This document shows, one piece after another, positions 4,259-19,730 of a stretch of DNA of 32,000 nucleotides. A model generated the notes under the pieces. The model worked only from the letters and a program-made list of their open reading frames with translations. It did not search any database and was not told where the DNA came from. Numbering within the stretch: the stretch's first letter is position 1; each line of letters begins with the position of its first letter. The stretch is from Candidatus Heimdallarchaeota archaeon. GTDB lineage: Archaea > Asgardarchaeota > Heimdallarchaeia > JABLTI01. The stretch is taken from assembly GCA_030614005.1 (NCBI GenBank), contig JAUWKS010000019.1, forward strand, positions 25,090 to 57,089, in the 5' to 3' direction. The position numbers and the translations under genes were made by a program.

Positions 4259-5194
4259 ATGACCAAAACATCATTCCTCGGGAAGAGTTTAGTGTCAATT
4301 CGGGACCTCACTAGAGAGCATATTGATCTAATATTAGATGAAGCCGAAAAGATGGATAAAATTATTGAATCAGGGAAAAAACCTCTTGAAGGCAAAGTAA
4401 TGGTCTCTCTATTTATGGAACCAAGCACAAGAACTCGTTTAAGTTTTGAATCTGCGATGCACCGGTTAGGTGGTGCGGTTATTAGTGTATCTGACCCAAA
4501 ATCTTCTTCTGCTGCAAAAGGTGAAAGCCTTTCAGATACAATCCGAACAGTAGCTAATTATGGTGATGTGATTGTAATTCGTCATCCAATGGAAGGATCC
4601 GCACGGTTAGCAGCAGAGTTTTCCAGTGTACCGGTGATTAGCGGTGGTAGTGGTGCAGAAGAACATCCAACACAAGCACTACTTGACCTTCTTACCTTAA
4701 AGCGTGAATTAAAGGAAATAGAAGGAAAAAGAATAGCGTTAGTAGGCGATTTGAAATATGGTCGAACAGTACATTCCCTTGCGTATTCTTTAGCAAAATA
4801 CAAAGATGTGATAATAGATTTTGTATCTCCCCCCTCATTAAAAATTCGGGACGAAATCAAAACTGACCTTGAAGAAGCAGGATTAGAGTTTCATGAAGAA
4901 GAAAGTCTAAACGAAGTAATCTCGAGAGTAGATGCTATATATATGACAAGAATTCAGAAAGAACGATTTGCTCAAGAAAGTGAATACGCCAAAGTTAAAG
5001 ATGCTTATGTTTTAACTAAAAAAATAATGAAAAAAACAAAAGGTCCAATACCTGTTTTACACCCTCTCCCACGATTAAATGAAATCGATTATGATATGGA
5101 TGAAACTGTTCATGCAGTATATTTCAAGCAAACATTCAATGGAGTATTAACAAGAATGGCACTTCTGAATCTAGTACTTGGGGGAAAAGCATAG
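4259..5194 (+). CDS. pyrB: Aspartate carbamoyltransferase catalytic subunit
   Basis: FMEPSTRTRLSF, SSAAKGESL, HPTQALLD, GDLKYGRTVHS, YMTRIQKERF, HPLPR. Confidence 0.97.
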   Translation: MTKTSFLGKSLVSIRDLTREHIDLILDEAEKMDKIIESGKKPLEGKVMVSLFMEPSTRTRLSFESAMHRLGGAVISVSDPKSSSAAKGESLSDTIRTVANYGDVIVIRHPMEGSARLAAEFSSVPVISGGSGAEEHPTQALLDLLTLKRELKEIEGKRIALVGDLKYGRTVHSLAYSLAKYKDVIIDFVSPPSLKIRDEIKTDLEEAGLEFHEEESLNEVISRVDAIYMTRIQKERFAQESEYAKVKDAYVLTKKIMKKTKGPIPVLHPLPRLNEIDYDMDETVHAVYFKQTFNGVLTRMALLNLVLGGKA

Positions 5195-5221
5195 CAATAT
5201 TATCAAAGGATTTGATGAAAT

Positions 5222-5725
5222 ATGAGCGAAAAAACAACTGATAAAAGTGAACTCAAAGTTTCAAAGATTAAAAATGGAACAGTGATTGATCACATAGCTG
5301 CGGGAACAGCGTTACTTGTACTTGAGATGCTGGGGATTACAGGTAGAGAAGGAACAAAGGTAACACTTTCATTAAATGTGCAAAGCAAGAAAAAAACGAA
5401 AAAAGATATTGTGAAAGTTGAGAATAGGATTCTCGATAAAAAAGAAATTAATCAAATTTCACTTATTAGTCCAAGAGCTACAATTAATGAAATAAAAAAC
5501 TTCACTGTTGTTAACAAATTCAAAGTAGAGTTACCTGAAGAAGTTCATGGATTTCCAAAATGTATCAATCCAAAATGTATTACAAATGCAAGAGAACCAC
5601 CAAAACATTCCTACTTTGTTAAAAGCAGTGACCCATTGAAAATTAGATGTAAATATTGTAACACTAATATGAACAAGCAAGATATTGTTAAAATGTTACT
5701 AAAATATCAAGGGTTAACAAAGTAA
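5222..5725 (+). CDS. pyrI: Aspartate carbamoyltransferase regulatory subunit
   Basis: IKNGTVIDHI, KKDIVKVE, zinc site CINPKCITN...CKYC; follows pyrB. Confidence 0.96.
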   Translation: MSEKTTDKSELKVSKIKNGTVIDHIAAGTALLVLEMLGITGREGTKVTLSLNVQSKKKTKKDIVKVENRILDKKEINQISLISPRATINEIKNFTVVNKFKVELPEEVHGFPKCINPKCITNAREPPKHSYFVKSSDPLKIRCKYCNTNMNKQDIVKMLLKYQGLTK

Positions 5726-5773
5726 CAAAAATAGCAACGACTAAGCTGTATAAAAGAAATTGAAAATTAGAAT

Positions 5774-5799
5774 GTGAAACTGGAAAGAATTCCAGTCAC
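5774..5799. terminator. Hairpin between convergent pyrI and rpl38e
   Basis: ACTGGAA (5779-5785) pairs with TTCCAGT (5790-5796), with outer GTG/CAC pairing and a T-rich run on the right. Confidence 0.5.
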
Positions 5800-5814
5800 T
5801 TTATTATTTTTTTC

Positions 5815-6009
5815 TTAATAATCTACAATTGGTATAGTGATTCTTGCTCGAATTGCTTCGGCCTCATTGACTGGGACCTTAATGGTATAGAGTTTGTGTT
5901 TGGTTCTGAATTTTAACTTAACTTCGTCACCTACTCTTTTAACTCTACATTCAGTTGCACGAGCAATGATGTCATCTAATTTTGAAATGTCTTTGATTTC
6001 CTCGGGCAT
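5815..6009 (-). CDS. rpl38e: Ribosomal protein L38e
   Basis: 64 aa. MPEEIKD...A..CRVKR....VKLKFRTKHKLYT matches the eL38 pattern (MP.KI.EIK.F...VKFKVRCSRYLYT). Confidence 0.85.
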   Translation of the reverse strand: MPEEIKDISKLDDIIARATECRVKRVGDEVKLKFRTKHKLYTIKVPVNEAEAIRARITIPIVDY

Positions 6010-6117
6010 TGGTTTTCACATCATTTGTTTTTTTATTTCTATTTGATTTACAAAATGGACGAGTATTTAAGAGTTTGTTTAAGAAAGAATTTTAGAAATA
6101 GTTAAAGCTGTTGCTTA

Positions 6118-7398
6118 TTACAACAGCTGTTGACCATAACTAATATCTTGCATAACAAGACCAGAAATCATTTTTGGGTAGAAATCAGTTGATTTTTGAG
6201 GCATTCGTTCATTGTTCTTAGATGCATCAAGTACTTGTGAGGCTTTTGTTGAATTCATAATTACTGCAATAGTTGCTTTGCCATCATCAACTTTTTTCAA
6301 AGCATCGTCTAACCATCGAATATAGAAGATACTTTCATTTATTTTGAGGTTTTTTGTTTTGAGGATACCATTGAAAATAAGTTCACGAACGATTACAACA
6401 TCTAATTCTTTATAGGAATCTGCATGTTCTTCTTTCAAGAATTTGTCAATAGATTTGGTGTCTTTCAAAACTAAACCATAGGTTTTACCCTCAGTGTAGA
6501 TAGTGAACGCATGCTTTTCATATGAATCCATAAAAGCTTGAATTTTATCCTTTTCAATGGATGAAACTTCAAAATAGTCTTTGATTTCTTTCCAAGCTTC
6601 TTCTGAAACTTTGTATCCATCGAGAACTCTGTGAGTTGGTAAAACAGTTAAACCTTCATCTTGAACTGCAACCAATAAAGTCATTCTGAAATTAACTGCA
6701 TCATCTTCGGACCAATTTGAGCGAGTGTTGCGAATTGTATCGCTATACCCACAAGCAGTTTCATAACGATGATGTCCATCAGCAACAACAATTTGTCCAG
6801 GGGGAATTTCAAAGACTTCTTGAATAATCTTGATTTTATCTGGGTCTTCTAATTTCCAAACTCTATTGCGAACACCCAAACTGTCAATAACATCCATTAT
6901 CGGTTCTGATGTAGCAATTTCATCAAAAATTTTGATGGTTGCTTTCTCAGGATCATTATAAAGCATAAATCCAGGCTCTAAGAATGTTTGAGTGGCTTTC
7001 AACATATTTAAACGATCTATTTTTGGACCTTTGTGTGTCCATTCGTGTGGAAGAACAATTCCTCTTTCAAAGTGAGTTAATTTAACTGCAGCAAAAAATC
7101 CTTTTCGAATCATTTTCTTGCCATATAATTCAAAATCCTGAAAATAAACATACAGACCTATTTTTTCATCTTGTTCAAAGATATCGTCTGTTTTCCATTT
7201 CTCTAAACGTTCCCCTGAAATTTCATAGCGGTTTTCTTCAATGGGTAAATTCAATCGGCAAAAATTATATTCAGACTTTGCATAATAGTCCTTTTGCATT
7301 TCAGCAGTAATCTTATCATAGGGTTGAACTACGAGATCTACTAAATCTCCTGCTTTCTTAGTATATCGTATACCTCTAAAGGGTCTTATTTCTACCAT
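6118..7398 (-). CDS. DUF1015 family protein (ParB/Srx-like catalytic motifs)
   Basis: IRPFRGIRY start, PYDKI, LPHE (117-119), ADGHHRYET (D207-R211), LPTHR, MPQKSTDFYPK..SGL. Confidence 0.92.
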   Translation of the reverse strand: MVEIRPFRGIRYTKKAGDLVDLVVQPYDKITAEMQKDYYAKSEYNFCRLNLPIEENRYEISGERLEKWKTDDIFEQDEKIGLYVYFQDFELYGKKMIRKGFFAAVKLTHFERGIVLPHEWTHKGPKIDRLNMLKATQTFLEPGFMLYNDPEKATIKIFDEIATSEPIMDVIDSLGVRNRVWKLEDPDKIKIIQEVFEIPPGQIVVADGHHRYETACGYSDTIRNTRSNWSEDDAVNFRMTLLVAVQDEGLTVLPTHRVLDGYKVSEEAWKEIKDYFEVSSIEKDKIQAFMDSYEKHAFTIYTEGKTYGLVLKDTKSIDKFLKEEHADSYKELDVVIVRELIFNGILKTKNLKINESIFYIRWLDDALKKVDDGKATIAVIMNSTKASQVLDASKNNERMPQKSTDFYPKMISGLVMQDISYGQQLL

Positions 7399-7435
7399 CT
7401 TGTTTTTTCACTTCCTTGTTATAAAAAATTGATTG

Positions 7436-7466
7436 TGAAGCTAGAGCAAAAAAAAGCTCAGCTTCA
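7436..7466 (-). terminator. Hairpin with 8-nt homopolymer loop between serA-like gene and DUF1015
   Basis: TGAAGCT/AGCTTCA plus GAGC/GCTC stems with an A8 loop on + (U8 on the transcribed strand); a T-run follows on the minus strand. Confidence 0.4.
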
Positions 7467-7511
7467 ATTTTTAGTATTATATTTAGTGAGGATAATCAAA
7501 AAGTCACTTTT

Positions 7512-8423
7512 TTAAAGCTTTTTCAGCTCTTCGATTACTGCCTCAGCAACTTGAATTCCTGCGCGTTCTTGCCCTTCTTTTGTTTGAGCACCAATATGTG
7601 GACTACCAATAACTTCTTCTAATTCGAGAAGTTTCTTGGAAACATCCAATTCTATTGGTTCCTTTTCCCAAACATCTAAAGCGACACCACGAATTTTGCC
7701 ACTTTTAATTGCATCATATACTGCACCTTCATCAAGTGTGCCACCTCGTGCACAGTTAATAATACAAACACCATCTTTCATTTGGGCAATGGTCTCTTTA
7801 CCAATAAGGTGTTTAGTATCAGGTAGTAATGGCAAATGAAGAGAAATATAGTCTGCTTGAGTGAAAACGTCCACCATTTCACATTGATCAACACATGCTT
7901 CATGAATTTCGACGACATCACAGCCAACAATTTTCATGCCAATAGCATGGGCCTTACGAGCGAGGGCAGAACCAATACGTCCACATCCAACAATACCTAA
8001 AGTCTTGCCAAGGAGCTCAGTGCCTTTAAGTTGCTTCTTCGCCCATTCACCTTTCCGCATAGTTGTTGTAGCTTTTACTATTGGTCTTGCAAGAGCAAAC
8101 ATATAAGCTAATGCAAGTTCGGCAACAGTATCTGTAGTTGCATTTGGAGTATTACGGACAACAATATTGCGTTCTTTACATTTTGCAAGATCAACATTGT
8201 CTAAACCTATGCCTGCTCGACCAACTACTTTTAGGTTTTTAGCTGCTTCTAAAAGGTCACCTTTGACTTTCGTTGCAGAACGAATAACTATAGCATCGTA
8301 TTCACCAATGATTTTTGGAAGTTCATCCTTGGGGATGTCCCATGCTTTGTTTACATCGTATCCAGCAGCTTCTAAAAGTTCGACACCTTTGTCAGCAATT
8401 TTATCTGTAACAATAACTTTCAT
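7512..8423 (-). CDS. serA: D-3-phosphoglycerate dehydrogenase-like D-2-hydroxyacid dehydrogenase, short form without ACT domain
   Basis: ATG at 8423, 6 nt after the aminotransferase stop. RSATKV, RAGIGLDNVD, GIVGCGRIG, INCARGG, ALDVWEKEP, SPHIGAQT; 303 aa ending without a regulatory domain. Confidence 0.8.
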   Translation of the reverse strand: MKVIVTDKIADKGVELLEAAGYDVNKAWDIPKDELPKIIGEYDAIVIRSATKVKGDLLEAAKNLKVVGRAGIGLDNVDLAKCKERNIVVRNTPNATTDTVAELALAYMFALARPIVKATTTMRKGEWAKKQLKGTELLGKTLGIVGCGRIGSALARKAHAIGMKIVGCDVVEIHEACVDQCEMVDVFTQADYISLHLPLLPDTKHLIGKETIAQMKDGVCIINCARGGTLDEGAVYDAIKSGKIRGVALDVWEKEPIELDVSKKLLELEEVIGSPHIGAQTKEGQERAGIQVAEAVIEELKKL

Positions 8424-8428
8424 TGATT

Positions 8429-9507
8429 TTACAGCTCCCAAATTTCTTCAATATGATTACAAACTTCTTTAACATCAGGAAGAGTCCAATCACCCATATG
8501 ACCAATTCTGAATGTTTTCTCTTTGAGCTGTTTCCCGTAGCCATTTGAAATCATAAAGTGTCGTTTAGCTAATTCTTTATTTAAATCACCTATACTGTTA
8601 CCAAGAGTATTCTTGATAGTAGACACTGTAAGAGATTCATAACCTTTTTCTGGAAACATTTCAAAGTGTTTATTTGCCCATCCTTGAGTCCACGTAGCCA
8701 TTTCAACGTGGCGGTCGTATCGACCTTTAGCAGTTTCTTCGAGCATTTTATCTAATTGATAAGAGAGAGCATACAAGAGAGTAACATTGGGTGTACTTGG
8801 TGTTTGTTGTTTCTTTTTATAGTAAGTATAAAGTCCAAGCAAATCGGTGTATCTACCTCTATTTGGTACTTCTTCACATCGTTTTAGTGCTTTTTCAGAA
8901 GCAAAACCAATTGCTAAACCAGGTGGAAGTGCATAGGCTTTTTGAGTAGATGCAAATATTAAATCACTGTGGATTTTTTCTGGTTCTACTAAATCTCCGC
9001 CCATTGCAGAAACTGAGTCAATTACATACACTACCTCAGGAAATTCTTTCTGAATCATTTCACCGATTTTATAGATCGGATTACGAACTCCGGTGCTTGT
9101 TTCATTGTGACAAACAAGAACAGTGTCATATTCTCCTGAAGATAATTGTTCACGTACCATTTCAGGTTTTATTGCTTTTCCCCATTCAACATCTATGGTA
9201 TCAACTTCTTTACCACAAGCAGAAATTGTTTCTGCAAATCGTTGTGAGAAAGCACCATTAACACCTGCTAAAGCTTTCTTCTTAACAAGACAGCGAGCAG
9301 TGATATCCATGAAAAGTGTTCCAGATGCTGTTGGAACAGTACCCATTGTTTGGTCTCATGGAATTTTTGTAACTTTTCAATAATACCTGTATAAAGTTCA
9401 GTGAATTCCTTAGGCCTGTGACCAATAAGTGGTTTCGCTTGTTGCATTAAAACATCAGGGAAAACTTCAGTTGGTCCTGGAATGAATAATCTTTTACGCA
9501 ATGTCAT
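8429..9507 (-). pseudogene. Class V PLP aminotransferase (serine-pyruvate/glyoxylate or archaeal phosphoserine aminotransferase type), split by one frameshift
   Basis: The N-terminus (LFIPGPTEV, IGHR) is in the 9507 frame; PTASGT, HNETSTG, DSVSAMG, STQKA (PLP Lys) and FRIGHMG are in the 8429..9346 frame. Adding one base between 9332 and 9355 gives about 359 aa. Either a real lesion or a sequencing error. Confidence 0.85.
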
Positions 9508-9523
9508 TTTTCCTCCAATTGAC

Positions 9524-9541
9524 GTCTACACTTTTGTAGAC
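9524..9541. promoter_or_regulatory. Perfect palindrome GTCTACA-N4-TGTAGAC upstream of the aminotransferase operon
   Basis: 7-bp arms at 9524-9530 and 9535-9541, 17 nt upstream of the ATG at 9507 and next to the GGAGG SD. Confidence 0.45.
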
Positions 9542-9698
9542 AAAGAAACTTTGTGCATATACATATATAATAAATTTTGTGCTGTTCGAGAAAAAAATTA
9601 ACTTGCTTAAAAACTATTGTTTTTCTCAAAGAAGTTATATATTTTAACGATTCTAGTAATAACCATAATAAAAAAACAATGAGAAATGGTGAAACAAA

Positions 9699-9950
9699 TT
9701 GGCAAGCGCATATGTATTAATTAACACTGAAATCGGAGGAGAAGAGAATGTTATTGCACAACTTAAATCAATGGAAGTTGTGGACGAAGTTTCAGTCGTA
9801 TATGGAGTCTATGATATTGTTGCCAAAATTTCTTCTGAGACGATGGAAAGTCTTAAGGAGATTATCTCTACAAAAGTAAGGCATCTAAACAAAGTGCGAT
9901 CGACGATGACGATGATTGCAGCTGAGTCAAGAATTCTTAAGAAGAAATAA
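9699..9950 (+). CDS. Stand-alone Lrp/AsnC ligand-binding (RAM) domain protein
   Basis: AYVLINTEIG, VYGVYDIVAK, VRSTMTMI; no HTH; TTG start after GGTGA. Confidence 0.9.
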   Translation: MASAYVLINTEIGGEENVIAQLKSMEVVDEVSVVYGVYDIVAKISSETMESLKEIISTKVRHLNKVRSTMTMIAAESRILKKK

Positions 9951-10098
9951 CTAACTTTCTTCAACCCCTTTTTCTTATTTTTTAAAAAAAATAATCAAAT
10001 GTAGGTGTTACTTGACGTCAGAGAAGAAATTAGAAAAAAGTATTGTAAAAAGAAAATAATCTAATTACATAATTAATAACCAGCGAAAGTTGAAAGAA

Positions 10099-10119
10099 AA
10101 AGGCTAAGATATAGCCTTT
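10099..10119 (-). terminator. Terminator-like hairpin after the second RAM gene
   Basis: AAAGGCTA/TAGCCTTT stem with 5-nt loop; a T-run follows on the minus strand. Confidence 0.5.
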
Positions 10120-10134
10120 ATTTTAAGTGTAGAT

Positions 10135-10368
10135 TTAATCAGCGCCAGCGATCATTGTCATTGTTGATCGGACTTTATTGAGGTGTCTAACTTTGGATGT
10201 AATCAATTCTTTGAGAATTTCCATAGTTTCAGCTTCTAGCTTAACTATTACATCATATACACCGTAAACAACACTTACTTCTACTACTTCTTTCATATCC
10301 TTAAGCTGCTTAACCACTTCTGCTTCTCCGCCAATTTCGGAGTTTATTAGTACGTATGCTTTAGCCAT
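10135..10368 (-). CDS. Stand-alone Lrp/AsnC ligand-binding (RAM) domain protein, paralog
   Basis: 54 of 74 residues identical to 9699..9950 by manual alignment; no HTH. Confidence 0.9.
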   Translation of the reverse strand: MAKAYVLINSEIGGEAEVVKQLKDMKEVVEVSVVYGVYDVIVKLEAETMEILKELITSKVRHLNKVRSTMTMIAGAD

Positions 10369-10511
10369 TTCTTTTTTTCTCCATACTCCTAGTAGTTTTA
10401 AGTATCGAACTATTAGTTAGCTCACATTTAGTGATAAAGATATATTAGGTTTTTCTTTCTGCATATTAGCTATTTTTTTGTTTTAAAAATGATTTTAATT
10501 TTCAAAACTCT

Positions 10512-11498
10512 TTATTTCTCATAGATTTGAGGATTAACGCAGTTTGCTGGTTGCTTGTTATTCAAACCTGCAAGTAAATTTTCACCAACCATCATACCCA
10601 TTTTAGTTCTGGTATCTATTGTTCCAGTTCCAATATGTGCGGTTATAATTACATTATCTATTTCTTTTAGTCCAGGACTTAGCTTTGGTTCAAATTCATA
10701 AACATCGAGCGCAGCGCCAGCGATTCGTTCCTCTTGAAGAGCTTTAACGAGTGCACTTTCATCTATTACAGACCCTCGAGATGTATTGATGAGGATAGCA
10801 GATGGTTTCATAAGAGCCAATTCTTTCTCACCAATCATATGTTTGGTTTTTTCCGTTAATGGAACATGTAAAGTGATATAATCGGATTCCTTCAGAATTT
10901 CTTCTACTGAAGCAAATTCAAGACCGAGTTCTTTTTCAAGATCGGGCAGTTGCTTTGTATTATTGTAAAGCACTTTCATATTGAATCCCTTAGCAGCTCT
11001 TCTAGCAACAGCTGAACCAATCCGTCCACAACCAATTACACCCAATGTTTTTCCATGAATATCATTTCCGAGATGAAGCATAGGTCCCCATCCTTTGAAT
11101 TTTCCATCTCGAGTAAATTTATCACTTTCAACAATTCTTCTCCCAATTGAAAGGAGTAATGCAAAGGTTAGATCTGCAGTTGTTTCAGTTAATACTCCGG
11201 GAGTATTTGTTACAGGTATTTTTCTTTTCGTTGCTTCTTGTGAATTTATATTATTATAACCAACAGCATAATTGGCAATTATTTTTAGCTTTGGGCCAGC
11301 CGCGTCCATAATTTCTCCATCAATTGTGTCTGTTAGTAAGCAAATTAGCCCGTCCTTTCCTTTTACCCTCTCTTTAATTTCTGAATGAGTTAGCACTCTA
11401 TCTTCTTCATTTATTTCCAGATCAATTTCGTTCTTTAACATATAATCAATTGCTGGTTGAGGTATTTTTCTTGTAAGTAAAACTTTGAATTTTGTCAA
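10512..11498 (-). CDS. gyaR: Glyoxylate reductase / D-glycerate dehydrogenase (D-2-hydroxyacid dehydrogenase)
   Basis: NYAVGYNNI, TNTPGVLTETTADL, GVIGCGRIG, INTSRG, ALDVYEFEP, HIGTGT; TTG start after GGAG. Confidence 0.8.
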   Translation of the reverse strand: MTKFKVLLTRKIPQPAIDYMLKNEIDLEINEEDRVLTHSEIKERVKGKDGLICLLTDTIDGEIMDAAGPKLKIIANYAVGYNNINSQEATKRKIPVTNTPGVLTETTADLTFALLLSIGRRIVESDKFTRDGKFKGWGPMLHLGNDIHGKTLGVIGCGRIGSAVARRAAKGFNMKVLYNNTKQLPDLEKELGLEFASVEEILKESDYITLHVPLTEKTKHMIGEKELALMKPSAILINTSRGSVIDESALVKALQEERIAGAALDVYEFEPKLSPGLKEIDNVIITAHIGTGTIDTRTKMGMMVGENLLAGLNNKQPANCVNPQIYEK

Positions 11499-11739
11499 TT
11501 GTTAAAACTCCGATGAATATGATATTTTATTTGAATTAAAATGCTTTTGTTGATTAAAGACTAAATGATAGAACGAATCTAACTAAAATTTTTTCTCTTT
11601 ATGAACGATTGGCAGACTTTCTGATTTTCAAAAAATTTTTCAGTTACAGTTCTGGTACACAAGAATTAATAATCAATAATTGAATGTAAAAAAGAGATAT
11701 TTTGGTGAATACTCAATAATTGATGAGAGAAGTGTTTAC

Positions 11740-12987
11740 ATGAGAGAAAAAAAAACGGAATATTCGGATCTTGACCCTATAGTTCTCGATGCAGGTTCAA
11801 GCATCATCAAGGCTGGCTTTGCTGGTGACGCTTACCCCATTGTTCTTTTTCCTGCCCAAGGGGATTTCAATCCATGTGTGCTTGATTTATTTGGTGAACC
11901 ATATTTATACCATGAAAATATCAATAAAATTTTCCCAAAAACGCCACCTTCTTCTCTCGAGTCTTTAGATAAACTCAGTTCAGAAGATGCATTAGCGAAA
12001 CGTTTGAATTATATATTCAAAGAAGGGCTAGGGATAGATATTCGATATTATCCACTCCTATTCATTGAACCTCCCAGAAATCCCCCTGCTGAACGTAAAA
12101 AAATTGCTGATTTTCTATTCAAGAAATTACACTGTACTAAAATCGCTTTTATAGATTCTGCTAAAGCTTCACATTATACATTTGGAAGACATATGTCTCT
12201 AATAGTGGAAATAAATACTAATAAAATAATTATAACTCCAATTAAAGGAATTTATGTAATTATGGAAGGTTGTATGGAAATGAATGGTGGAGGTCATGCA
12301 ATGACCAATTATATAGAAAATCAGATAAAAAAACAAAATCCTAAAATCGAGTCTGATGTTCATAATCTTGCTCGAAAAATTAAAGAAACTCATGGGATTG
12401 TTTATTGTCCGAGCCTTACTGAACCAAAGGTGCCTGAAAAAGCTAAAGAACTATTTCAGAAACGTTTTGGAACATCTGTAAGTTTTCCCATTTCCGATAC
12501 TGAAGGAGAGTCTATCAAAATTGATGACATAAGTCCGTTGCGTTGGAAAGCAGCTGATGCTTTATTTCATAAGGGAGATCAAGGTATTTATCCAATGTCT
12601 ATTAGTGAGTTTATAATGGAGAGCATTAACAAATGTCCAAGTGATAAACACCATGATTTACTCTGTAACGTTGTGTTAGCTGGTGGAGGTACGGATATTG
12701 TTGGTTTGGCTGTTCGTTTGACTGAAGAACTTAAGATACTAACAAAGAATGACCAAAACCTACAGATCCACGTAATACAAACCAATGAAATTAAGATTTG
12801 TGCTTGGGTAGGAGGTTCAATTGAAGGTTCACTTAAGCTTTTCCAAAAATGCTGGTTAACTGAAAAAGAATATAATGATGGAAAATATCATGAAAAATAT
12901 GCTGTTTACCATTGTTATGGTAACTTTACTTATGAAAATGCCTTATTGAGTTACACCAAATACAGAAAAGAAGATGATTCAATCTAA
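11740..12987 (+). CDS. Divergent actin-family protein (Asgard actin-related protein)
   Basis: IVLDAGSSIIKAGFAGD (phosphate-1), LLFIEPPRNP..ERKK, NVVLAGG, AWVGGSI..SL..F...W....EY. ATG at 11740 preferred over TTG at 11680. Confidence 0.92.
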   Translation: MREKKTEYSDLDPIVLDAGSSIIKAGFAGDAYPIVLFPAQGDFNPCVLDLFGEPYLYHENINKIFPKTPPSSLESLDKLSSEDALAKRLNYIFKEGLGIDIRYYPLLFIEPPRNPPAERKKIADFLFKKLHCTKIAFIDSAKASHYTFGRHMSLIVEINTNKIIITPIKGIYVIMEGCMEMNGGGHAMTNYIENQIKKQNPKIESDVHNLARKIKETHGIVYCPSLTEPKVPEKAKELFQKRFGTSVSFPISDTEGESIKIDDISPLRWKAADALFHKGDQGIYPMSISEFIMESINKCPSDKHHDLLCNVVLAGGGTDIVGLAVRLTEELKILTKNDQNLQIHVIQTNEIKICAWVGGSIEGSLKLFQKCWLTEKEYNDGKYHEKYAVYHCYGNFTYENALLSYTKYRKEDDSI

Positions 12988-13135
12988 GTTATTCAACTTG
13001 AACATTAAAAAGGTAATACCTTCACTCTAGCAAAAAAACTACAATTGTCGCTTCCATAAAACATATATGAAGCATTTTCCCTCTCAATAATAGGAATTAA
13101 TCTTTGAGAAAAAATAAACTTAAAGAGGATTCGTT

Positions 13136-14251
13136 ATGGGGTTAAAGGCTAAAATACTAGTTATCGATGATAACGAATTAATTCGTACCCTATTACAGGA
13201 ACTTTTAACTCGAAATGGGTACGAAACATTTGTTGCTGTTGATGGTAAATCTGCTATCGAATTGTTAGAAAATGTTAAACCACATTTAGCGCTTGTAGAT
13301 TTAATGCTACCTGATATTTCCGGTATTGAAGTCATTAAACAAATACGAAGCATCTCCCCTTCAACAGAATCAATCATAATCACAGGGCACTCTTCTTATG
13401 ATTCAGCAAAAAAAGTTCTTTCTTCATATGTTGCTTGTGGTCTTCTCGAAAAACCGATAGATGTCAATAAATTATTGACCACTATTCAGAAAGTACTTGA
13501 AAGGCATGAAAGCCTAATCCAAATTGAGGAAGATCTCGATGAAGTTACTCGTATAAATTATCAACTCGACTTTTTCAATACCATTCTTTTCCGCGATTTC
13601 AAGATTTTAACAGAAGCACTTGCAGAATCAATGGTGCTTCTAGAAGATGATATTTTAACTGAAAAACAGAAAAGAAGTCTAGCAATAATCAATACCATTT
13701 ATTATAATAATACAAGACTGATTCACAGCTACAAAAAGATGAAGAAAATTCATACAATAAAAACTGAAGATTTCAGTTGTTTAGATATTGTTGTTATACT
13801 TAAGCAAGTTATTATTGCCTTAAATGATGTTGAGATTGATTGCAAAGTAGATCAACTAACTGAATACTCAGACAATGAAATTTTCGTTTTAGGAATAGAG
13901 GAAGAACTCAATGAATTATTTTATGAGCTATTTTTCTCAATGATTATGCCTGGAATTTTGAATCAAATAGTCATTGATTTGGATCTTAAGAAAACGAACT
14001 CATTAACTGATGAAGAAAAACGAAATATTCCTACGGTAGAATTGAAACTAACAGTTGAATCAGACAATAAACCAAAGATGACTAGCGAACCTTTAACAGA
14101 ATTCGAATCACAGAAATATGGTCTTGGTTTTTATATCGTAAAAAATATTGTCGATCTCTTTAACGGAAAAATATTCTTGGAAGATTCGAAAGAAAATGGA
14201 AAGCTAATTACCACAATAGTAATATTTCTTCCTGCTTGTAACAAAGAGTAA
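13136..14251 (+). CDS. Response regulator receiver fused to a degenerate histidine kinase-like domain
   Basis: Intact REC residues (D11, D12, D55, T83, K106). The C-terminal part retains GLGFYIVKNIV.LFNGKI (G2 box), but the H, N and G1 boxes are degenerate. Confidence 0.85.
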   Translation: MGLKAKILVIDDNELIRTLLQELLTRNGYETFVAVDGKSAIELLENVKPHLALVDLMLPDISGIEVIKQIRSISPSTESIIITGHSSYDSAKKVLSSYVACGLLEKPIDVNKLLTTIQKVLERHESLIQIEEDLDEVTRINYQLDFFNTILFRDFKILTEALAESMVLLEDDILTEKQKRSLAIINTIYYNNTRLIHSYKKMKKIHTIKTEDFSCLDIVVILKQVIIALNDVEIDCKVDQLTEYSDNEIFVLGIEEELNELFYELFFSMIMPGILNQIVIDLDLKKTNSLTDEEKRNIPTVELKLTVESDNKPKMTSEPLTEFESQKYGLGFYIVKNIVDLFNGKIFLEDSKENGKLITTIVIFLPACNKE

Positions 14252-14258
14252 CATAACC

Positions 14259-14271
14259 AAAAGATTATTAC
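14259..14271 (+). promoter_or_regulatory. BRE/TATA-like promoter element AAAAGATTATTAC upstream of GT4
   Basis: Identical 13-mer at 15557-15569; ends 25 nt before the ATG at 14296. Confidence 0.5.
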
Positions 14272-14295
14272 TGTGAAACCTCAAACGCTTAATGA

Positions 14296-15537
14296 ATGGA
14301 GGCAATAATAATTATAGCATTTTTTATCGAGCGATTTACTAAAAATGATATTGGCGGAGTAAAATCATATCTCCGAAGAATCGCAAAATACCTTATTGCC
14401 AATGATCGGAAGGTAGTAATTTTAACGCAATTAACTAAAAATGATCAAGAAGAAGAAACGGTAATTGAGGGCATCCCCGTAATACGGTTAGATTGCGGTG
14501 ATTTAGTAGATCGTATTGAAAGTTTCTCTACCATACCAACAGAAGAACGAATTCAATTAGCAAAGGATTTGTTTAACGACAATGACCTTGAAACTACAGG
14601 TTTGAAACTTGCAGGTGAATTAGCAGAGTTCATAAACAAAAATAAACCTCAAGTTATTCACTTTCATAACTCATATTTTATTACTCCATATGCACTCTAT
14701 TTTCTAAAACAAAGATTGAACACATACACAACACCTTCGTACTATTTTTGGACGCACAGTCCTCCAATGGATATTATTTTGCCAGATGGAAAGAAAGACA
14801 GCATCTATAGCGCATTGAGTTCATTCCAAAATTTGTTCAAAGGAATCTTTTCAGTAAGTCATTCTGTGAGAGATTATCTACTTAAAGCAGGAATTAATTC
14901 AAAAGTAAAATATCTTGGAGTAGATACAGAAGTATTTGCAAAGAGTGAAGAGAAAAGAAAACAAATACGAGAGAAATTCAATATTTCTGAAAATGCTTTC
15001 GTAGTCCTTTATACTGGAAGAATCATCAAGGAAAAAGGATTAGATCTATTTCCAACAATATGCAAGGAACTTTTGAAAAAAGGTGATTCATATGCTAAGA
15101 TTCAGTTTCTAATAGCAGGTGAAGGTCGCTATAAAGAAAAGTTAATTGAGAAATTAAAGCAAGAAAAGATCGACCATTGTTTTCATTTTACTGTAGCAGA
15201 AGCTGAAGAAGATTTGGCTGCGCTATATTCAAGTGCAGATTGTTTTCTATTACCTACAAGAAGAGAAGCATTAGGTCTTTCATTGTTAGAAGCAATGAGT
15301 TGTTCATTACCATGTCTGGTAACTGATTTATCCGGAGTAAAAGAAATAATTACTCATGGAAAAAATGGCATTATCTTTCCAAAAGATGATATAGCAGAAA
15401 TAGTTAGATGGATTTCAGCTCTCTTTTCTAATAAAAATATGAAAGAGAATCTTGCTCAACAGACTCGAGTTACCATCACAGAGAAGTTTAGTGCTGAAAA
15501 TCATTATCGTAATTTTATGCGGCGATTGCTATTCTAA
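14296..15537 (+). CDS. Glycosyltransferase family 4 (GT-B fold)
   Basis: IGGVKSY, IHFHN, LYTGRIIKEKG, EALGLSLLEAMSC (EX7E), GVKEII.HG.NG. Confidence 0.92.
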   Translation: MEAIIIIAFFIERFTKNDIGGVKSYLRRIAKYLIANDRKVVILTQLTKNDQEEETVIEGIPVIRLDCGDLVDRIESFSTIPTEERIQLAKDLFNDNDLETTGLKLAGELAEFINKNKPQVIHFHNSYFITPYALYFLKQRLNTYTTPSYYFWTHSPPMDIILPDGKKDSIYSALSSFQNLFKGIFSVSHSVRDYLLKAGINSKVKYLGVDTEVFAKSEEKRKQIREKFNISENAFVVLYTGRIIKEKGLDLFPTICKELLKKGDSYAKIQFLIAGEGRYKEKLIEKLKQEKIDHCFHFTVAEAEEDLAALYSSADCFLLPTRREALGLSLLEAMSCSLPCLVTDLSGVKEIITHGKNGIIFPKDDIAEIVRWISALFSNKNMKENLAQQTRVTITEKFSAENHYRNFMRRLLF

Positions 15538-15556
15538 TTTTTTTACCAAATTCATG

Positions 15557-15569
15557 AAAAGATTATTAC
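15557..15569 (+). promoter_or_regulatory. BRE/TATA-like promoter element AAAAGATTATTAC upstream of GNAT
   Basis: Identical to 14259-14271; ends 34 nt before the GTG at 15603. Confidence 0.5.
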
Positions 15570-15602
15570 CACATTTTGATTTTTGCTAGCTAAAGCTGTA
15601 GA

Positions 15603-16520
15603 GTGATACCTGTGAGTGAACGATTAGATTTTGTTTATGGTGAACGAGACGATTACAAAGATATTTTTCGAATTGCCGAAACTACCGATTGGGGTGAAAC
15701 ATCAAATGATATCCAAAGATATCTTAGAAATCCTCATCACAAATATATCTTATTGGTCAATCCAGAAGGTGTAGTTAATGCTATTACACTTACTGTTGCA
15801 TATGATGAGATAGGATTCATTGGACATGTAATTGTTGAACCAGAAATGCAAGGAATGGGAATTGGTCAAGAAATTATGATTGAGGCAACAAATTATTTGC
15901 TACATTGTGGTTGCAAAACAATAAAATTAGATGCGGTGCAAAAAGCTCAAACATTATATGAGCGAATCGGTTACTTGTTTGAATTAAACTCCTTAAGGTT
16001 TTATTTAGATGTGTCAACAGAAGAAAGAATAGCACAATTTAAAGAAAAGAGAAGGAAGTTTACTAAAAAATTTCCATTGAATAATGTGAAAGAAGATGAT
16101 TTAGCAGAAATTCTCAACGCAGATGAAGAGATGTTCGGGTGCAATAGGGATGGCTTGCTAAAAATATTATTCGAAGATTTTTCTGAATATGCATTTATTT
16201 CTAAAGATACTGATGATTTTTTAGCGGGGTATTCTTTCGGTGTTGTTGAAAACAAAATACTCAGAATAAGAGCTGGATTGAGCGACTCTCTCGAGACAAC
16301 AATTAGTTTGATTGATGCTGCAATAATCACTGCATTGGAAGCAGAAGATATTGAAGGTGTATCTATTGGTATGATTGAAAATACTAAGTGGGGTATCAAG
16401 GCAATGGACGCTTTAGGGTTTGCAAAAACAGGTTATTCTCTAAGAATGTATACAGGAGTGAAAAATGAAGCAACAATTAATCCATCATTTTTTGCTATTG
16501 GCCATCCAGCAAAAGGTTAG
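15603..16520 (+). CDS. GNAT N-acetyltransferase with a second (YitH-like) GNAT domain
   Basis: GFIGHVIVEPEMQGMGIG (acetyl-CoA motif), KLDAV....LYERIGY; second domain contains D..MFG.NR..LL and ends RMY.G...G. Confidence 0.85.
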   Translation: MIPVSERLDFVYGERDDYKDIFRIAETTDWGETSNDIQRYLRNPHHKYILLVNPEGVVNAITLTVAYDEIGFIGHVIVEPEMQGMGIGQEIMIEATNYLLHCGCKTIKLDAVQKAQTLYERIGYLFELNSLRFYLDVSTEERIAQFKEKRRKFTKKFPLNNVKEDDLAEILNADEEMFGCNRDGLLKILFEDFSEYAFISKDTDDFLAGYSFGVVENKILRIRAGLSDSLETTISLIDAAIITALEAEDIEGVSIGMIENTKWGIKAMDALGFAKTGYSLRMYTGVKNEATINPSFFAIGHPAKG

Positions 16521-16535
16521 AAATAACCTTTGTTT

Positions 16536-17432
16536 TTAAAACCAAATTGCAAAATGCTCTAGTATCATTCTAGAACCTTCTTCAAGTGATTTAGCAGAAA
16601 TCATATAATGAACTAACTCAGTCTCCTCTATCGATAATGCTGCTTCAACCAAAACTGTTGCATAGCCAATTCTAGCAAGTTTTCCACGAGCATTTAGACT
16701 ATAAGAATCTCCTGACTTTTGTAGAAGAGGAGAAAGTCTTGGAATCGCATCAGGTAGTTCACCTAGATGAATTTCACCAACTCTATCAAAGATGTAATCT
16801 TTGATTTGGTCTGTTGAAACTTTTTTCGGAGCACCAGCAATAAACTCGAATATTCTTTGCGTTACAAAACTTGCATCATCTCGTTTAGCATAAAAATGAT
16901 TTTCGAAATCTCGTATAGTTAATCTATTGTTAACTACACTATCGGTTATGAGACTCAATTCGTTCTCCAATGCCTCATCCCAATCTTCGAAACCACCGAT
17001 TGTAAGGAAGTTCACTGCACTACAACGTAATGAAGTTTGAAGCACTAACAAAGCATTGCCAAGTGGTGTAAGATTGTAATGAGAATGAACACCACCGAAT
17101 CCAGTCCAAGCCATCCCATCTGATGGCCCTTCTTTCTCACGAACCATTATACCATTTTCTCTGAAAATCTTGAGAAAACGTTCGAAACCCTTGACTCCTT
17201 TTCCTTTCACGCGCTTTGAAACAAGTGTAGTTAATTCCTTAACTCGGCTAAAACGATTGATATCTTTAGAACCGAAATACAATTCAAGCTTCTTGTCGTA
17301 ATTGAAAAATCGAGCACGATTAATTGGTTCTTCAAGATAAGGAATTAAAGAAGCTGAAAGAAGTATCACGAAACTTGATTCACTATCGGTTTCTTTAATC
17401 ATCTTTTGAGTTATTTCTCTAACTTCACTCAT
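16536..17432 (-). CDS. Hypothetical protein, probably two winged-helix domains
   Basis: Clean 298-aa ORF. Wing motifs YNLTPLG (119-125) and YSLNARG (244-250), each preceded by helix-turn-helix-like segments. Confidence 0.6.
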   Translation of the reverse strand: MSEVREITQKMIKETDSESSFVILLSASLIPYLEEPINRARFFNYDKKLELYFGSKDINRFSRVKELTTLVSKRVKGKGVKGFERFLKIFRENGIMVREKEGPSDGMAWTGFGGVHSHYNLTPLGNALLVLQTSLRCSAVNFLTIGGFEDWDEALENELSLITDSVVNNRLTIRDFENHFYAKRDDASFVTQRIFEFIAGAPKKVSTDQIKDYIFDRVGEIHLGELPDAIPRLSPLLQKSGDSYSLNARGKLARIGYATVLVEAALSIEETELVHYMISAKSLEEGSRMILEHFAIWF

Positions 17433-17554
17433 GAAATCACATTCAAATCTTAATTGAATACAATACTAAAATTGTAAAATGGACATAAAAACGATTCCAT
17501 ATAACAATCAATGACTATTTGAGGAAAAAAAGAATAAATTCGGAAAAAGAAGGA

Positions 17555-18508
17555 CTACTCTTTTTCGTCTTTAGACTTTAGAATTTCTGTTGTGGAAAGA
17601 TCTTCGGCTATTTCAGTGGTTATTGAAGAATCATTTTCATCCGAATCTTCTTCGGGGCCATCCTCTTTTAGTTTCAGTTTCTTCTTATGTTGATTTACAT
17701 AGTATATGACATTTGATAAAACAAACATCAATACAAGAACCCCGAAAATAATGAAGAATATTGTATTAAAATGACCTGCTGTAGCTTCAATTTCCTCTTG
17801 AGTTAATTCCAAAAGATGTTCTACTGGATTATTACCTAGAAGTTGAACTCCTAAAATGGAATAGAAAATCGCACGAGGTATTGACCCAATGAATGTTGCT
17901 AGGAAATATTGTTTATCTTTTACATTTGCTATACCAGCTGCATAGCTTATTGGATCAAACATAATTACTGGTACGGCTCTACCAATGATAATTGCCCAGA
18001 TTCCCCATCTTTTAATCCACACATCGAAAATATATATTGTACGATCAATAATGCCTGATTTCTTACCAGCAGCATCAACTATTGATCGTCCGCCTCGCTT
18101 TGAAAGATAAAAAGTGATTGCTGCACTAAACATAGAACCAATAACACCAATCAGTGAGCCCCAATAGTAACCGAATAACATACCACCTGATAAAAGAATT
18201 AGTTCCGATGGAATTGGTGCAAAAAGACTTTGAAGAACCATTACAGCTAAGAACATAACAATACGCCAAACAATATGTATTTTCAAAATGGGTGCAATAA
18301 ACCAATCACGAACAATTGTAAAGAGGAATGTTTCTTCAACAATGATGACTACTAATAAACCCACAGAGATAAGCATTATAATGATAAATATTATTGCAAG
18401 CACAATTCGATCTTTCGTCCAAGTAAATGTTCTGGATTCCTTAGTGATTTTAGCGCCATTGTCAGCAATAATACCATTTTGTTCTATTGTTGTATCAATT
18501 TCATCCAT
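17555..18508 (-). CDS. TVP38/TMEM64 (DedA/VTT, SNARE-associated) family membrane protein
   Basis: QSLFAPIPSE, GGMLFG..WG, GRAVPVIMFDPISYAAG, YFLATFIGSIP; acidic C-terminal tail. Confidence 0.9.
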   Translation of the reverse strand: MDEIDTTIEQNGIIADNGAKITKESRTFTWTKDRIVLAIIFIIIMLISVGLLVVIIVEETFLFTIVRDWFIAPILKIHIVWRIVMFLAVMVLQSLFAPIPSELILLSGGMLFGYYWGSLIGVIGSMFSAAITFYLSKRGGRSIVDAAGKKSGIIDRTIYIFDVWIKRWGIWAIIIGRAVPVIMFDPISYAAGIANVKDKQYFLATFIGSIPRAIFYSILGVQLLGNNPVEHLLELTQEEIEATAGHFNTIFFIIFGVLVLMFVLSNVIYYVNQHKKKLKLKEDGPEEDSDENDSSITTEIAEDLSTTEILKSKDEKE

Positions 18509-18677
18509 TTTACATTCACCAATAATATTAGGAGTTACTTTCGCTTTATTTTAAGTATATTCCTATAAATACTATGGCAATAACTCACCTTGGTTATTAA
18601 AAGAAAAAGCTATTAAAAGTTTTAAAAGGAGCATCAAAAAACATCAAACAGTAATTAATTCATAAGTGTTGGTTCAA

Positions 18678-19730
18678 ATGACTTTACAAGCATTACTTAA
18701 AAAAAAGGATTTAACGTATCTCTTCCTTGGGGGAAAAGGTGGTGTGGGGAAAACAATAGCTGCTTCAGCTATTAGTATAAAATTAGCAAAACATTTTGAT
18801 AAGGTACTTGTTGTAAGTACAGATCCAGCACATTCACTCTCCGATTGTTTTGATCAAGATTTATCAGGTGGGGAAGCTGTTAGAATTGATAAAGTGCCTG
18901 GAAATCTCTTTGGGATGGAGTTAGATGCTGAAAAGGGTATGGAGAGTTTTAAAGAGTTAAGCTCTATGGGAATGCCAGGTGCCCAAGATATGGGCGGCAT
19001 GGGCATGCCAGGTTTTGGCACTACACCTAACACTACAGAAGGAATGCCTGGAGGAGCTCCTCAAATGCCAGGTTTAGATGCTTTAGGATTAGGTTCTGAT
19101 TTACTTGGTGATAGTATCCCTCCAGGTTCAGATGAAGCATTTGCTTTTAGTAAATTGCTTGAATTAATTGAAACAAACGAATATGATTTAGTTGTTTTTG
19201 ATACTGCTCCAACAGGTCATACGCTTAGATTTCTTTCACTTCCAGATTATCTTGACAGCTTTATTGGTAGAATGCTCAAAATGAGAATGCGTTTTGGCAA
19301 TCTCTTTAAGGGAATCCGGAACCTCTTTTCCGGCGGAGCAGGTGAAGAAGGTGTTGAGGATAATTCTATGGAAATGTTAGAAACACTCAAGAAAACAATT
19401 ACTAAAGCTCGAATAGAATTAGCAGATGATACAAAAACAGAATTCATTCCTGTAACAATACCTACAATGATGGCTTTATATGAAACTGAAAGATTGATCA
19501 CTTCATTGAAAGAATATGGTATACCTGTGGAACACATTATTGTAAATCAATTAATACCTTCCAGCAAAGATTGTCCATTCTGCGCAAAAAGATTCGAAAT
19601 TCAAGAAAAAACGATGTTAACATTGAAACAATATTTCGGTGAATTTATTCAAACGAATGTTCCAATGGTACCACAAGAAATCCGTGGTATAGAACAATTA
19701 ACATTGCTTGCAGAAGTATTATTCAAATAA
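18678..19730 (+). CDS. ArsA/Get3 (TRC40)-family ATPase, Get3-type
   Basis: GGKGGVGKT, STDPAHSLSD, PPGSDEA, DTAPTGHTLRFL, CPFC dimerisation motif, Met-rich inserts. Single domain. ATG at 18678 (GTG at 18666 is an alternative). Confidence 0.92.
   Translation: MTLQALLKKKDLTYLFLGGKGGVGKTIAASAISIKLAKHFDKVLVVSTDPAHSLSDCFDQDLSGGEAVRIDKVPGNLFGMELDAEKGMESFKELSSMGMPGAQDMGGMGMPGFGTTPNTTEGMPGGAPQMPGLDALGLGSDLLGDSIPPGSDEAFAFSKLLELIETNEYDLVVFDTAPTGHTLRFLSLPDYLDSFIGRMLKMRMRFGNLFKGIRNLFSGGAGEEGVEDNSMEMLETLKKTITKARIELADDTKTEFIPVTIPTMMALYETERLITSLKEYGIPVEHIIVNQLIPSSKDCPFCAKRFEIQEKTMLTLKQYFGEFIQTNVPMVPQEIRGIEQLTLLAEVLFK

Follow-up and report, generated by a model that had tools for sequence, protein, structure and literature searches.

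A 415-residue actin-family protein, P0001, is encoded on the + strand at positions 11740-12987 of the window, by which we mean the whole 32,000-nucleotide stretch of Candidatus Heimdallarchaeota DNA that was analysed. The assembly from which the window comes (G000; contig C82) totals 3.6 Mb in 126 contigs and is 90% complete. The open reading frame that contains the gene spans 11680-12987 (+) and offers an ATG at 11740 as well as an alternative TTG at 11680. The ATG is the likely start, because the orthologue P0002 (86% identical), located on the metagenome contig L033, was called from the same MREKK, and because an indel upstream at that locus puts the TTG out of frame. The protein matches the Pfam Actin profile (PF00022) far beyond chance, with an E-value of 1.2e-49 and a score of 169.5 bits against a cut-off of 27. 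Of the solved structures, HMMER ranks HC1 actin (PDB 9wc4, E 2.7e-34) first and eukaryotic actins, at about 1e-29, next. The name HC1 belongs to a Hodarchaeales strain that is in culture and whose Lokiactin has been studied. An AlphaFold2 model that rests on a 67-sequence alignment contains all four actin subdomains (mean pLDDT 84.7, pTM 0.85). Its confidence is low solely at residues 1-6 and 392-415 and is also reduced in the D-loop region and in part of subdomain 4. When the model is compared with the PDB by Foldseek, the top matches are actins, with TM-scores of 0.74-0.82 normalised by target. The profile match and the four-subdomain fold place P0001 in the actin family (ASKHA fold). The gene is genuine and intact, and its actin-shaped product belongs to an Asgard archaeon of the Heimdall group. 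The coding sequence and the sites within it are as follows.

11740..12987, + strand: coding sequence of P0001, stop codon included (Pfam Actin, HMMER, AlphaFold2, Foldseek)
11788..11811, + strand: phosphate-1 loop D17-A-G-S-S-I-I-K24, corresponding to actin D11...K18; Asp, first Gly, Ser and Lys kept, G15 replaced by Ser (S21)
11848..11964, + strand: subdomain-2 region, residues 37-75, with family-specific motifs; D-loop replaced by FPAQGxFxP..., PIEHG sensor loop replaced by FPKxPPS
12157..12159, + strand: S140 at the position of the catalytic Q137; Ser in four of four family members
12208..12231, + strand: degenerate phosphate-2 hairpin E157-I-N-T-N-K-I-I164, glycine-free, with I164 at the position of H161
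12676..12690, + strand: adenosine loop L313-A-G-G-G317 (LAGGGT), kept in P0001; GG changed to GE in the relative P0005
12919..12984, + strand: C-terminal extension G394-I415, 22 residues past actin's terminal CF; F396 and Y398 invariant in the family, model confidence low

The residue register was taken from HMMER alignments to solved actins and from independent L-INS-i alignments (MAFFT), and the two gave the same result. A preliminary description of the sequence, based on a manual alignment, had placed P0001 at an offset of +3 from actin. This offset is correct after subdomain 2, and at phosphate-1 it is +6. The three replacements that the description proposed, Q137 by S140, H161 by I164 and the phosphate-2 motif DSGDG by EINTN, were recovered in both sets of alignments. 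E157-I-N-T-N161 of P0001 aligns with D154-S-G-D-G158 of actin. No canonical residue was found at any of these sites. Residues 150-169 are devoid of glycine; hence, the phosphate-2 loop can be restored in no other register. The adenosine loop was correctly described as retained, and so was the 22-residue tail that follows the end of actin. Phosphate-1 had also been described as retained, which is true of its Asp, first Gly, Ser and Lys and not of G15. P0001 thus lacks the features of a catalytically competent ASKHA ATPase, as the DxGxG of phosphate-2, Q137 and H161 are all gone. The DxGxG...K of phosphate-1 and the adenosine GG are mostly kept in P0001 itself (DAGSS..K and LAGGGT) and are eroded in its relatives P0004 and P0005. 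Because the phosphate-1 Asp, Gly, Ser and Lys and the adenosine GG are present, P0001 may bind ATP without hydrolysing it.

The remaining surfaces are altered as well. The actin sequence of subdomain 2 is gone, with 0-4% identity to actin in the columns of this subdomain, and in this respect the earlier statement that the D-loop and PIEHG region is unrecognisable stands. It can now be refined, as PIEHG is replaced by FPKxPPS, which is conserved in the family. The H73 sensor loop of actin is missing, and close orthologues vary most in the subdomain-2 region. In both P0001 and P0002, the residue corresponding to actin L346 is a glutamate. This change, along with others among the groove residues, means that binding to the D-loop of actin is not implied. 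The C-terminal tail was considered as a membrane-targeting amphipathic helix and this was rejected, since its hydrophobic moment is low (muH at most 0.34).

P0001 belongs to a small family that consists of P0001, its orthologue P0002, P0004 and P0005. When 1.84 billion representative proteins were searched exhaustively with HMMER, three family clusters were returned, namely P0003 (the cluster that holds P0001 and P0002), P0004 and P0005. P0004 is 50% and P0005 48% identical to P0001, and the lowest identity among the four intact lineages is 43%. After the last family cluster the HMMER score falls from 273 bits to 129, where the matches are generic actins and Arps. A profile built from the four sequences is matched (E at most 1e-55) in one of 399 Asgard species genomes representing 85 genera, and the carrier is G000. 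Scanning by pattern of contigs from metagenomes, viruses and genomes gave no further members with genomic context and found only generic actins at 23-28% identity. Similarly, no family member was found in IMG/VR, where the best viral matches are giant-virus actins at 25-26%. DNA of the gene occurs in cold-seep and marine-sediment metagenomes from at least three studies, and no RNA dataset is listed among the samples that hold it. In the population contigs the frame is intact, with no stops or frameshifts, and the codon variants comprise four synonymous and five non-synonymous changes.

The active-site losses are shared by the whole family. In each of the four proteins, Q137 is replaced by Ser and H161 by Ile or Thr, and the phosphate-2 strand (EINTN, EFSAE or EISAT) contains no glycine. 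P0004 additionally has a phosphate-1 loop that reads DASSR, in which G13 is changed to Ser, and it lacks subdomain 4 entirely. In P0005 phosphate-1 reads NIGSC (D11 to Asn), the adenosine loop reads VGEYA (G302 to Glu) and subdomain 4 is reduced to a stump. As the relatives share the site losses and erode further, ATP handling is not under selection in this family. Other parts are well preserved. Identity between P0001 and P0004 is 57% in subdomain 1, 45% in subdomain 3 and 39% in subdomain 2, with subdomain 4 missing. Across the family 100 columns are invariant, and these include new family-specific motifs. Subdomain 2 has the conserved residues F37, P38, Q40, G41, F43 and P45, followed by F65, P66, P69, P70 and S71. 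The hinge motif WxGGS, the motif C-W-L-T-x-x-E-Y and, toward the C-terminus, H384 together with F396 and Y398 of the extension are conserved too. Selection has maintained the fold and some of its surfaces and has not maintained nucleotide handling, and no other observation speaks as strongly for a protein without catalysis. The suggestion of a pseudo-ATPase made in the preliminary description is accordingly firmer than before, because the degenerate catalytic site is common to all members of the family.

Degenerate sites of this kind are also seen elsewhere in the class. At least two further groups of Heimdallarchaeia paralogues, one of 379-401 residues and another of 481-525 residues with Gly, Asn or Met at D154, have degenerate phosphate-2 loops and lack Q137. 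Among these sampled paralogues, phosphate-2 reads VESSAS or has Gly, Asn or Met at D154. Judged from such alignments, a degenerate phosphate-2 is a common trait among Asgard actin paralogues. The P0001 family is a new, small and rare family of a known kind, the archaeal actin-related proteins, and is not a part of the core cytoskeleton.

The gene sits in a variable insert within an otherwise conserved piece of chromosome. Positions 4259-19730 of the window are collinear with contig C24 of G010, a genome of the same genus, with protein identities of 79-96%. The insert was delimited with blastn and MAFFT and contains the following features.

11577..13038, + strand: insert of about 1.46 kb carrying the actin paralogue and its own upstream region; in G000 and L033, absent from G010
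11577..11739, + strand: upstream non-coding part of the insert, presumed promoter, conserved with L033
11668-11683 and 11708-11723: 16-nt direct repeat, AATAATCAATAATTGA / AATACTCAATAATTGA, copies 40 nt apart, just upstream of the start codon

The direct repeat may have a regulatory role in the insert. The content of the gap that separates the 2-hydroxyacid dehydrogenase gene from the response regulator gene is different in each of four genomes.

G010: empty; the two genes adjoin
G000 (11499-13135): actin paralogue
L033: actin paralogue and a 115-aa ORF
G001 (contig C366): intact 218-aa gene, with flavodoxin-like and aldo-keto-reductase-like genes

The last two names are ones that we take from our reading of the N-terminal sequences. 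Since the contents differ, the site is a variable hotspot at which the actin gene replaced other genes. The 115-aa ORF of L033 was considered as a partner of the actin paralogue and was rejected, because it is what a truncation has left of a 218-aa gene, its C-terminal part, and G001 has this gene intact. An insertion by a mobile element was likewise rejected, as there are no flanking direct or inverted repeats and the base composition is host-like (GC 0.343, GC3 0.233). A functional link to the neighbouring response regulator was rejected because the regulator is present in G010, where the actin gene is not. The neighbouring gene itself (13136-14251) has an intact receiver domain, whereas its match to HATPase_c is weak and partial (E 1.3e-4, below the cut-off), which fits a degenerate kinase module. 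The neighbours of P0005, a methyltransferase and a TPR protein, are unrelated to those of P0001, so that the family has no conserved operon partner.

Substitution rates were calculated between the window and L033, where the orthologue lies at L033:1160-2395.

Actin paralogue: dN 0.068, dS 0.167, dN/dS 0.41
Dehydrogenase: dN 0.046, dS 0.53, dN/dS 0.087
Response regulator: dN 0.067, dS 0.40, dN/dS 0.167
Glycosyltransferase: dN 0.054, dS 0.67, dN/dS 0.081

The ratio of the actin paralogue is below 1 (Fisher p 5e-5) and exceeds the ratios of its neighbours three- to fivefold. The gene is therefore under purifying but relaxed selection. It does not have the marks of a pseudogene, as its reading frame is intact in all copies and in the population contigs and its dN/dS is 0.41. 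The dS of the cassette is 0.17, and 0.09 in its centre, against 0.40-0.67 in the flanks. The lower value would give the cassette a younger common ancestor than its flanks, and it suggests that the actin cassette was exchanged between lineages after the flanks had diverged.

The actin/Arp phylogeny with Asgard sequences that the preliminary description called for puts the family outside the Lokiactins, and its place among the Arps changes from tree to tree. Two careful trees were computed, one of 50 rows (LG+C20 PMSF) and one of 121 rows; named Arp2 or Arp3 rows were not among them. In every tree the four family members group together (100/100), and the stem of their clade is long. The Lokiactin clade excludes the family in both trees, with support of 99/97 and 96/89. 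In the 50-row tree the family joins rows that include named Arp4 proteins (98/100). In the 121-row tree the Arp4 rows form a monophyletic group that leaves the family out (100/99), and the family stands beside a divergent paralogue type named after contig C74 of G000, with weak support (93/24). AU tests reject none of the constrained placements, whether with the C74 type (p 0.46), with Lokiactins (p 0.13) or with all sampled Asgard paralogues (p 0.09). The family shares with the Arp4 rows the loss of Q137 and H161 and TP in place of VP after the phosphate-2 strand. When the family is aligned with named Arp4 rows, it is seen to lack the insertions that these have in subdomain 4. The position of the family in the actin/Arp tree is unstable and prone to long-branch effects.

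G000 has only two actin-family matches above the cut-off, P0001 and the C74 paralogue (C74:12733-13896, 387 aa, Pfam E 3.9e-35). The C74 paralogue has His at D11 (VHGAGS), a phosphate-2 that reads DIGFSQ and a subdomain 2 of which most is missing. It is found in at least 8 of 11 genomes of the genus, G000 included. Both proteins are divergent and are altered at phosphate-1 and phosphate-2, whereas they are only about 22% identical and differ in the pattern of site losses. Although the two are weak sisters in the 121-row tree, the C74 type is widespread in the genus and P0001 is not. A Lokiactin-type gene was not found in the 90%-complete G000 assembly. An actin match is present in 39 of the 41 genomes of the class that were searched, with G000 counted, and is typically 378-392 aa long. 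Such a typical actin is 59-60% identical to eukaryote-type actin and 27-28% identical to P0001. This identity, together with the placement outside the Lokiactin clade, bears out the earlier statement that P0001 is not the conserved Lokiactin. Positional orthology with Lokiactin was rejected as well, because in relatives Lokiactin sits in a different neighbourhood. The 17 kb around Lokiactin in G010 (contig C45) have no close counterpart in G000. As the whole region is missing, the absence of Lokiactin is likely an assembly gap and not a loss. From the relatives we infer that the host would have a conventional actin available as a partner. G000 encodes a two-domain gelsolin (contig C31). The Pfam profilin search was silent in G000, and its controls were silent as well.

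The explanation that we favour, with about even confidence, is that P0001 would be a non-catalytic accessory actin-related protein that keeps the actin fold, does not hydrolyse ATP and is probably independent of nucleotide. With the nucleotide clock lost and the pointed-end face (subdomains 2 and 4) eroding, it would not form dynamic filaments of the actin type. Instead, it would act stoichiometrically as a binding protein through the conserved face of subdomains 1 and 3 and the aromatic C-terminal tail, and its partner could be the conventional actin of the host or some other protein. Towards actin it might serve as the cap or nucleator proposed in the preliminary description, or as a monomer partner. 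Because close relatives do without the gene, its role would be dispensable and niche-specific. The preliminary description had drawn a parallel with the degenerate eukaryotic Arps, and a non-catalytic Arp-like protein remains the best description. The parallel does not extend to importance in the cell, since the gene is accessory and rare, lies in a variable insert and is under relaxed constraint, all of which argues against a core regulator like the universally conserved Arps of eukaryotes.

The dN/dS of 0.41 and the variation in presence and absence also fit a gene of marginal function. It is possible, at clearly lower probability, that the gene is a decaying and nearly neutral duplicate or acquired copy in a recombination hotspot that is being lost lineage by lineage. 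Its absence from the syntenic G010, the unrelated genes that fill the same gap in G001, its occurrence in one of 399 Asgard genomes, a dN/dS three to five times that of the neighbours and the progressive erosion of motifs, with subdomain 4 deleted in relatives, would all be expected of such a copy. Neutral decay is at odds with a dN/dS significantly below 1 (p 5e-5), with a reading frame that four lineages, as little as 43% identical, have kept intact along with 100 invariant positions including new motifs, and with contigs from several studies that are free of stops and frameshifts. We consider it improbable that P0001 is an unconventional but active nucleotide-driven filament former that follows a ParM/Alp-like logic, for example in the service of a mobile element. 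The phosphate-1 loop and adenosine GG kept in P0001 would suit such a protein, as would a cassette-like insert whose dS of 0.17 against 0.40-0.67 in the flanks suggests recent exchange. However, the phosphate-2 glycines are missing in any register, and relatives have lost D11, G13, G302 and subdomain 4. The surrounding block (4259-19730) is syntenic core chromosome with no mobile-element genes, the insert has host-like GC3 and no boundary repeats, and IMG/VR holds no family member, its best matches being the giant-virus actins at 25-26%.

More improbable still is a relationship with eukaryotic Arp4, either as a pre-eukaryotic Arp4-like relic in Heimdallarchaeia or through transfer from a eukaryote to an archaeon, in which P0001 would be a nucleotide-independent, non-polymerising partner that pairs with monomeric actin. 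The 50-row tree, which joins the family to Arp4-containing rows (98/100), the shared loss of Q137 and H161, the shared TP for VP and the Arp4-like matches, which have the highest local identities to P0001 (31-36%), speak for this relationship. The 121-row tree does not reproduce it, as Arp4 is monophyletic without the family (100/99) and the family lies beside the C74 type (93/24). The AU test prefers neither placement (p 0.46), subdomain-4 insertions of the Arp4 type are missing, and the family and Arp4 are both long branches.

If P0001 is the non-catalytic accessory protein that we favour, the family would show, in a clean and natural case, how an actin fold has become a binding module with no enzymatic function. 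Comparison of its members indicates that the ATP site is dispensable and that what is retained is subdomains 1 and 3 together with a new C-terminal motif. P0001 adds a small and previously unnamed family to the Asgard actin-related proteins, and its presence/absence polymorphism between sister species provides natural comparisons with and without the gene. To our knowledge, no prokaryotes other than Asgard archaea have a regulated actin system that resembles the eukaryotic one, and we know of hardly any experimental study of the function of their actin-related paralogues. Because the family is rare and its constraint relaxed, it carries limited weight for arguments on eukaryogenesis, unless the weak Arp4 signal is confirmed.

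Among known systems, Lokiactin (9wc4 and the 378-392-aa actins of the class) resembles P0001 in its Pfam family, its four-subdomain fold and the motifs WxGGS and W-[IL]-T-x-x-E-Y. It differs in that Lokiactins share about 60% identity with eukaryotic actin, whereas P0001 is 27-28% identical to Lokiactins, is without Q137, H161, DSGDG and PIEHG, has a C-terminal extension and evolves at a dN/dS of 0.41. Lokiactin has been described in all Asgard classes (PMC9834061), unlike the P0001 family, which occurs in one of 399 Asgard genomes and is absent from the syntenic G010. Asgard genomes contain one conserved Lokiactin along with ARP-like homologues (Rodrigues-Oliveira et al., 2022; PMC9834061), and the distribution of the latter is patchy and shaped by gains, losses and duplications (PMC9834061). 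P0001 is similar to these Asgard ARPs as a divergent actin homologue, beside Lokiactin, with a patchy distribution. Its family is distinguished from them by its size of three clusters in 1.84 billion proteins, by its own subdomain-2 motifs and by a C-terminal FxY tail. The nuclear Arps of eukaryotes are non-polymerising subunits (PMC6167448). Arp4, Arp7, Arp9 and the dynactin subunit Arp11 use the actin fold as a stoichiometric, non-filament subunit (PMC6167448), and Arp4-like rows share the loss of Q137- and H161-type residues with the P0001 family. In contrast to these eukaryotic Arps, which are conserved core genes, P0001 is an accessory gene product and is free of Arp4-type insertions.
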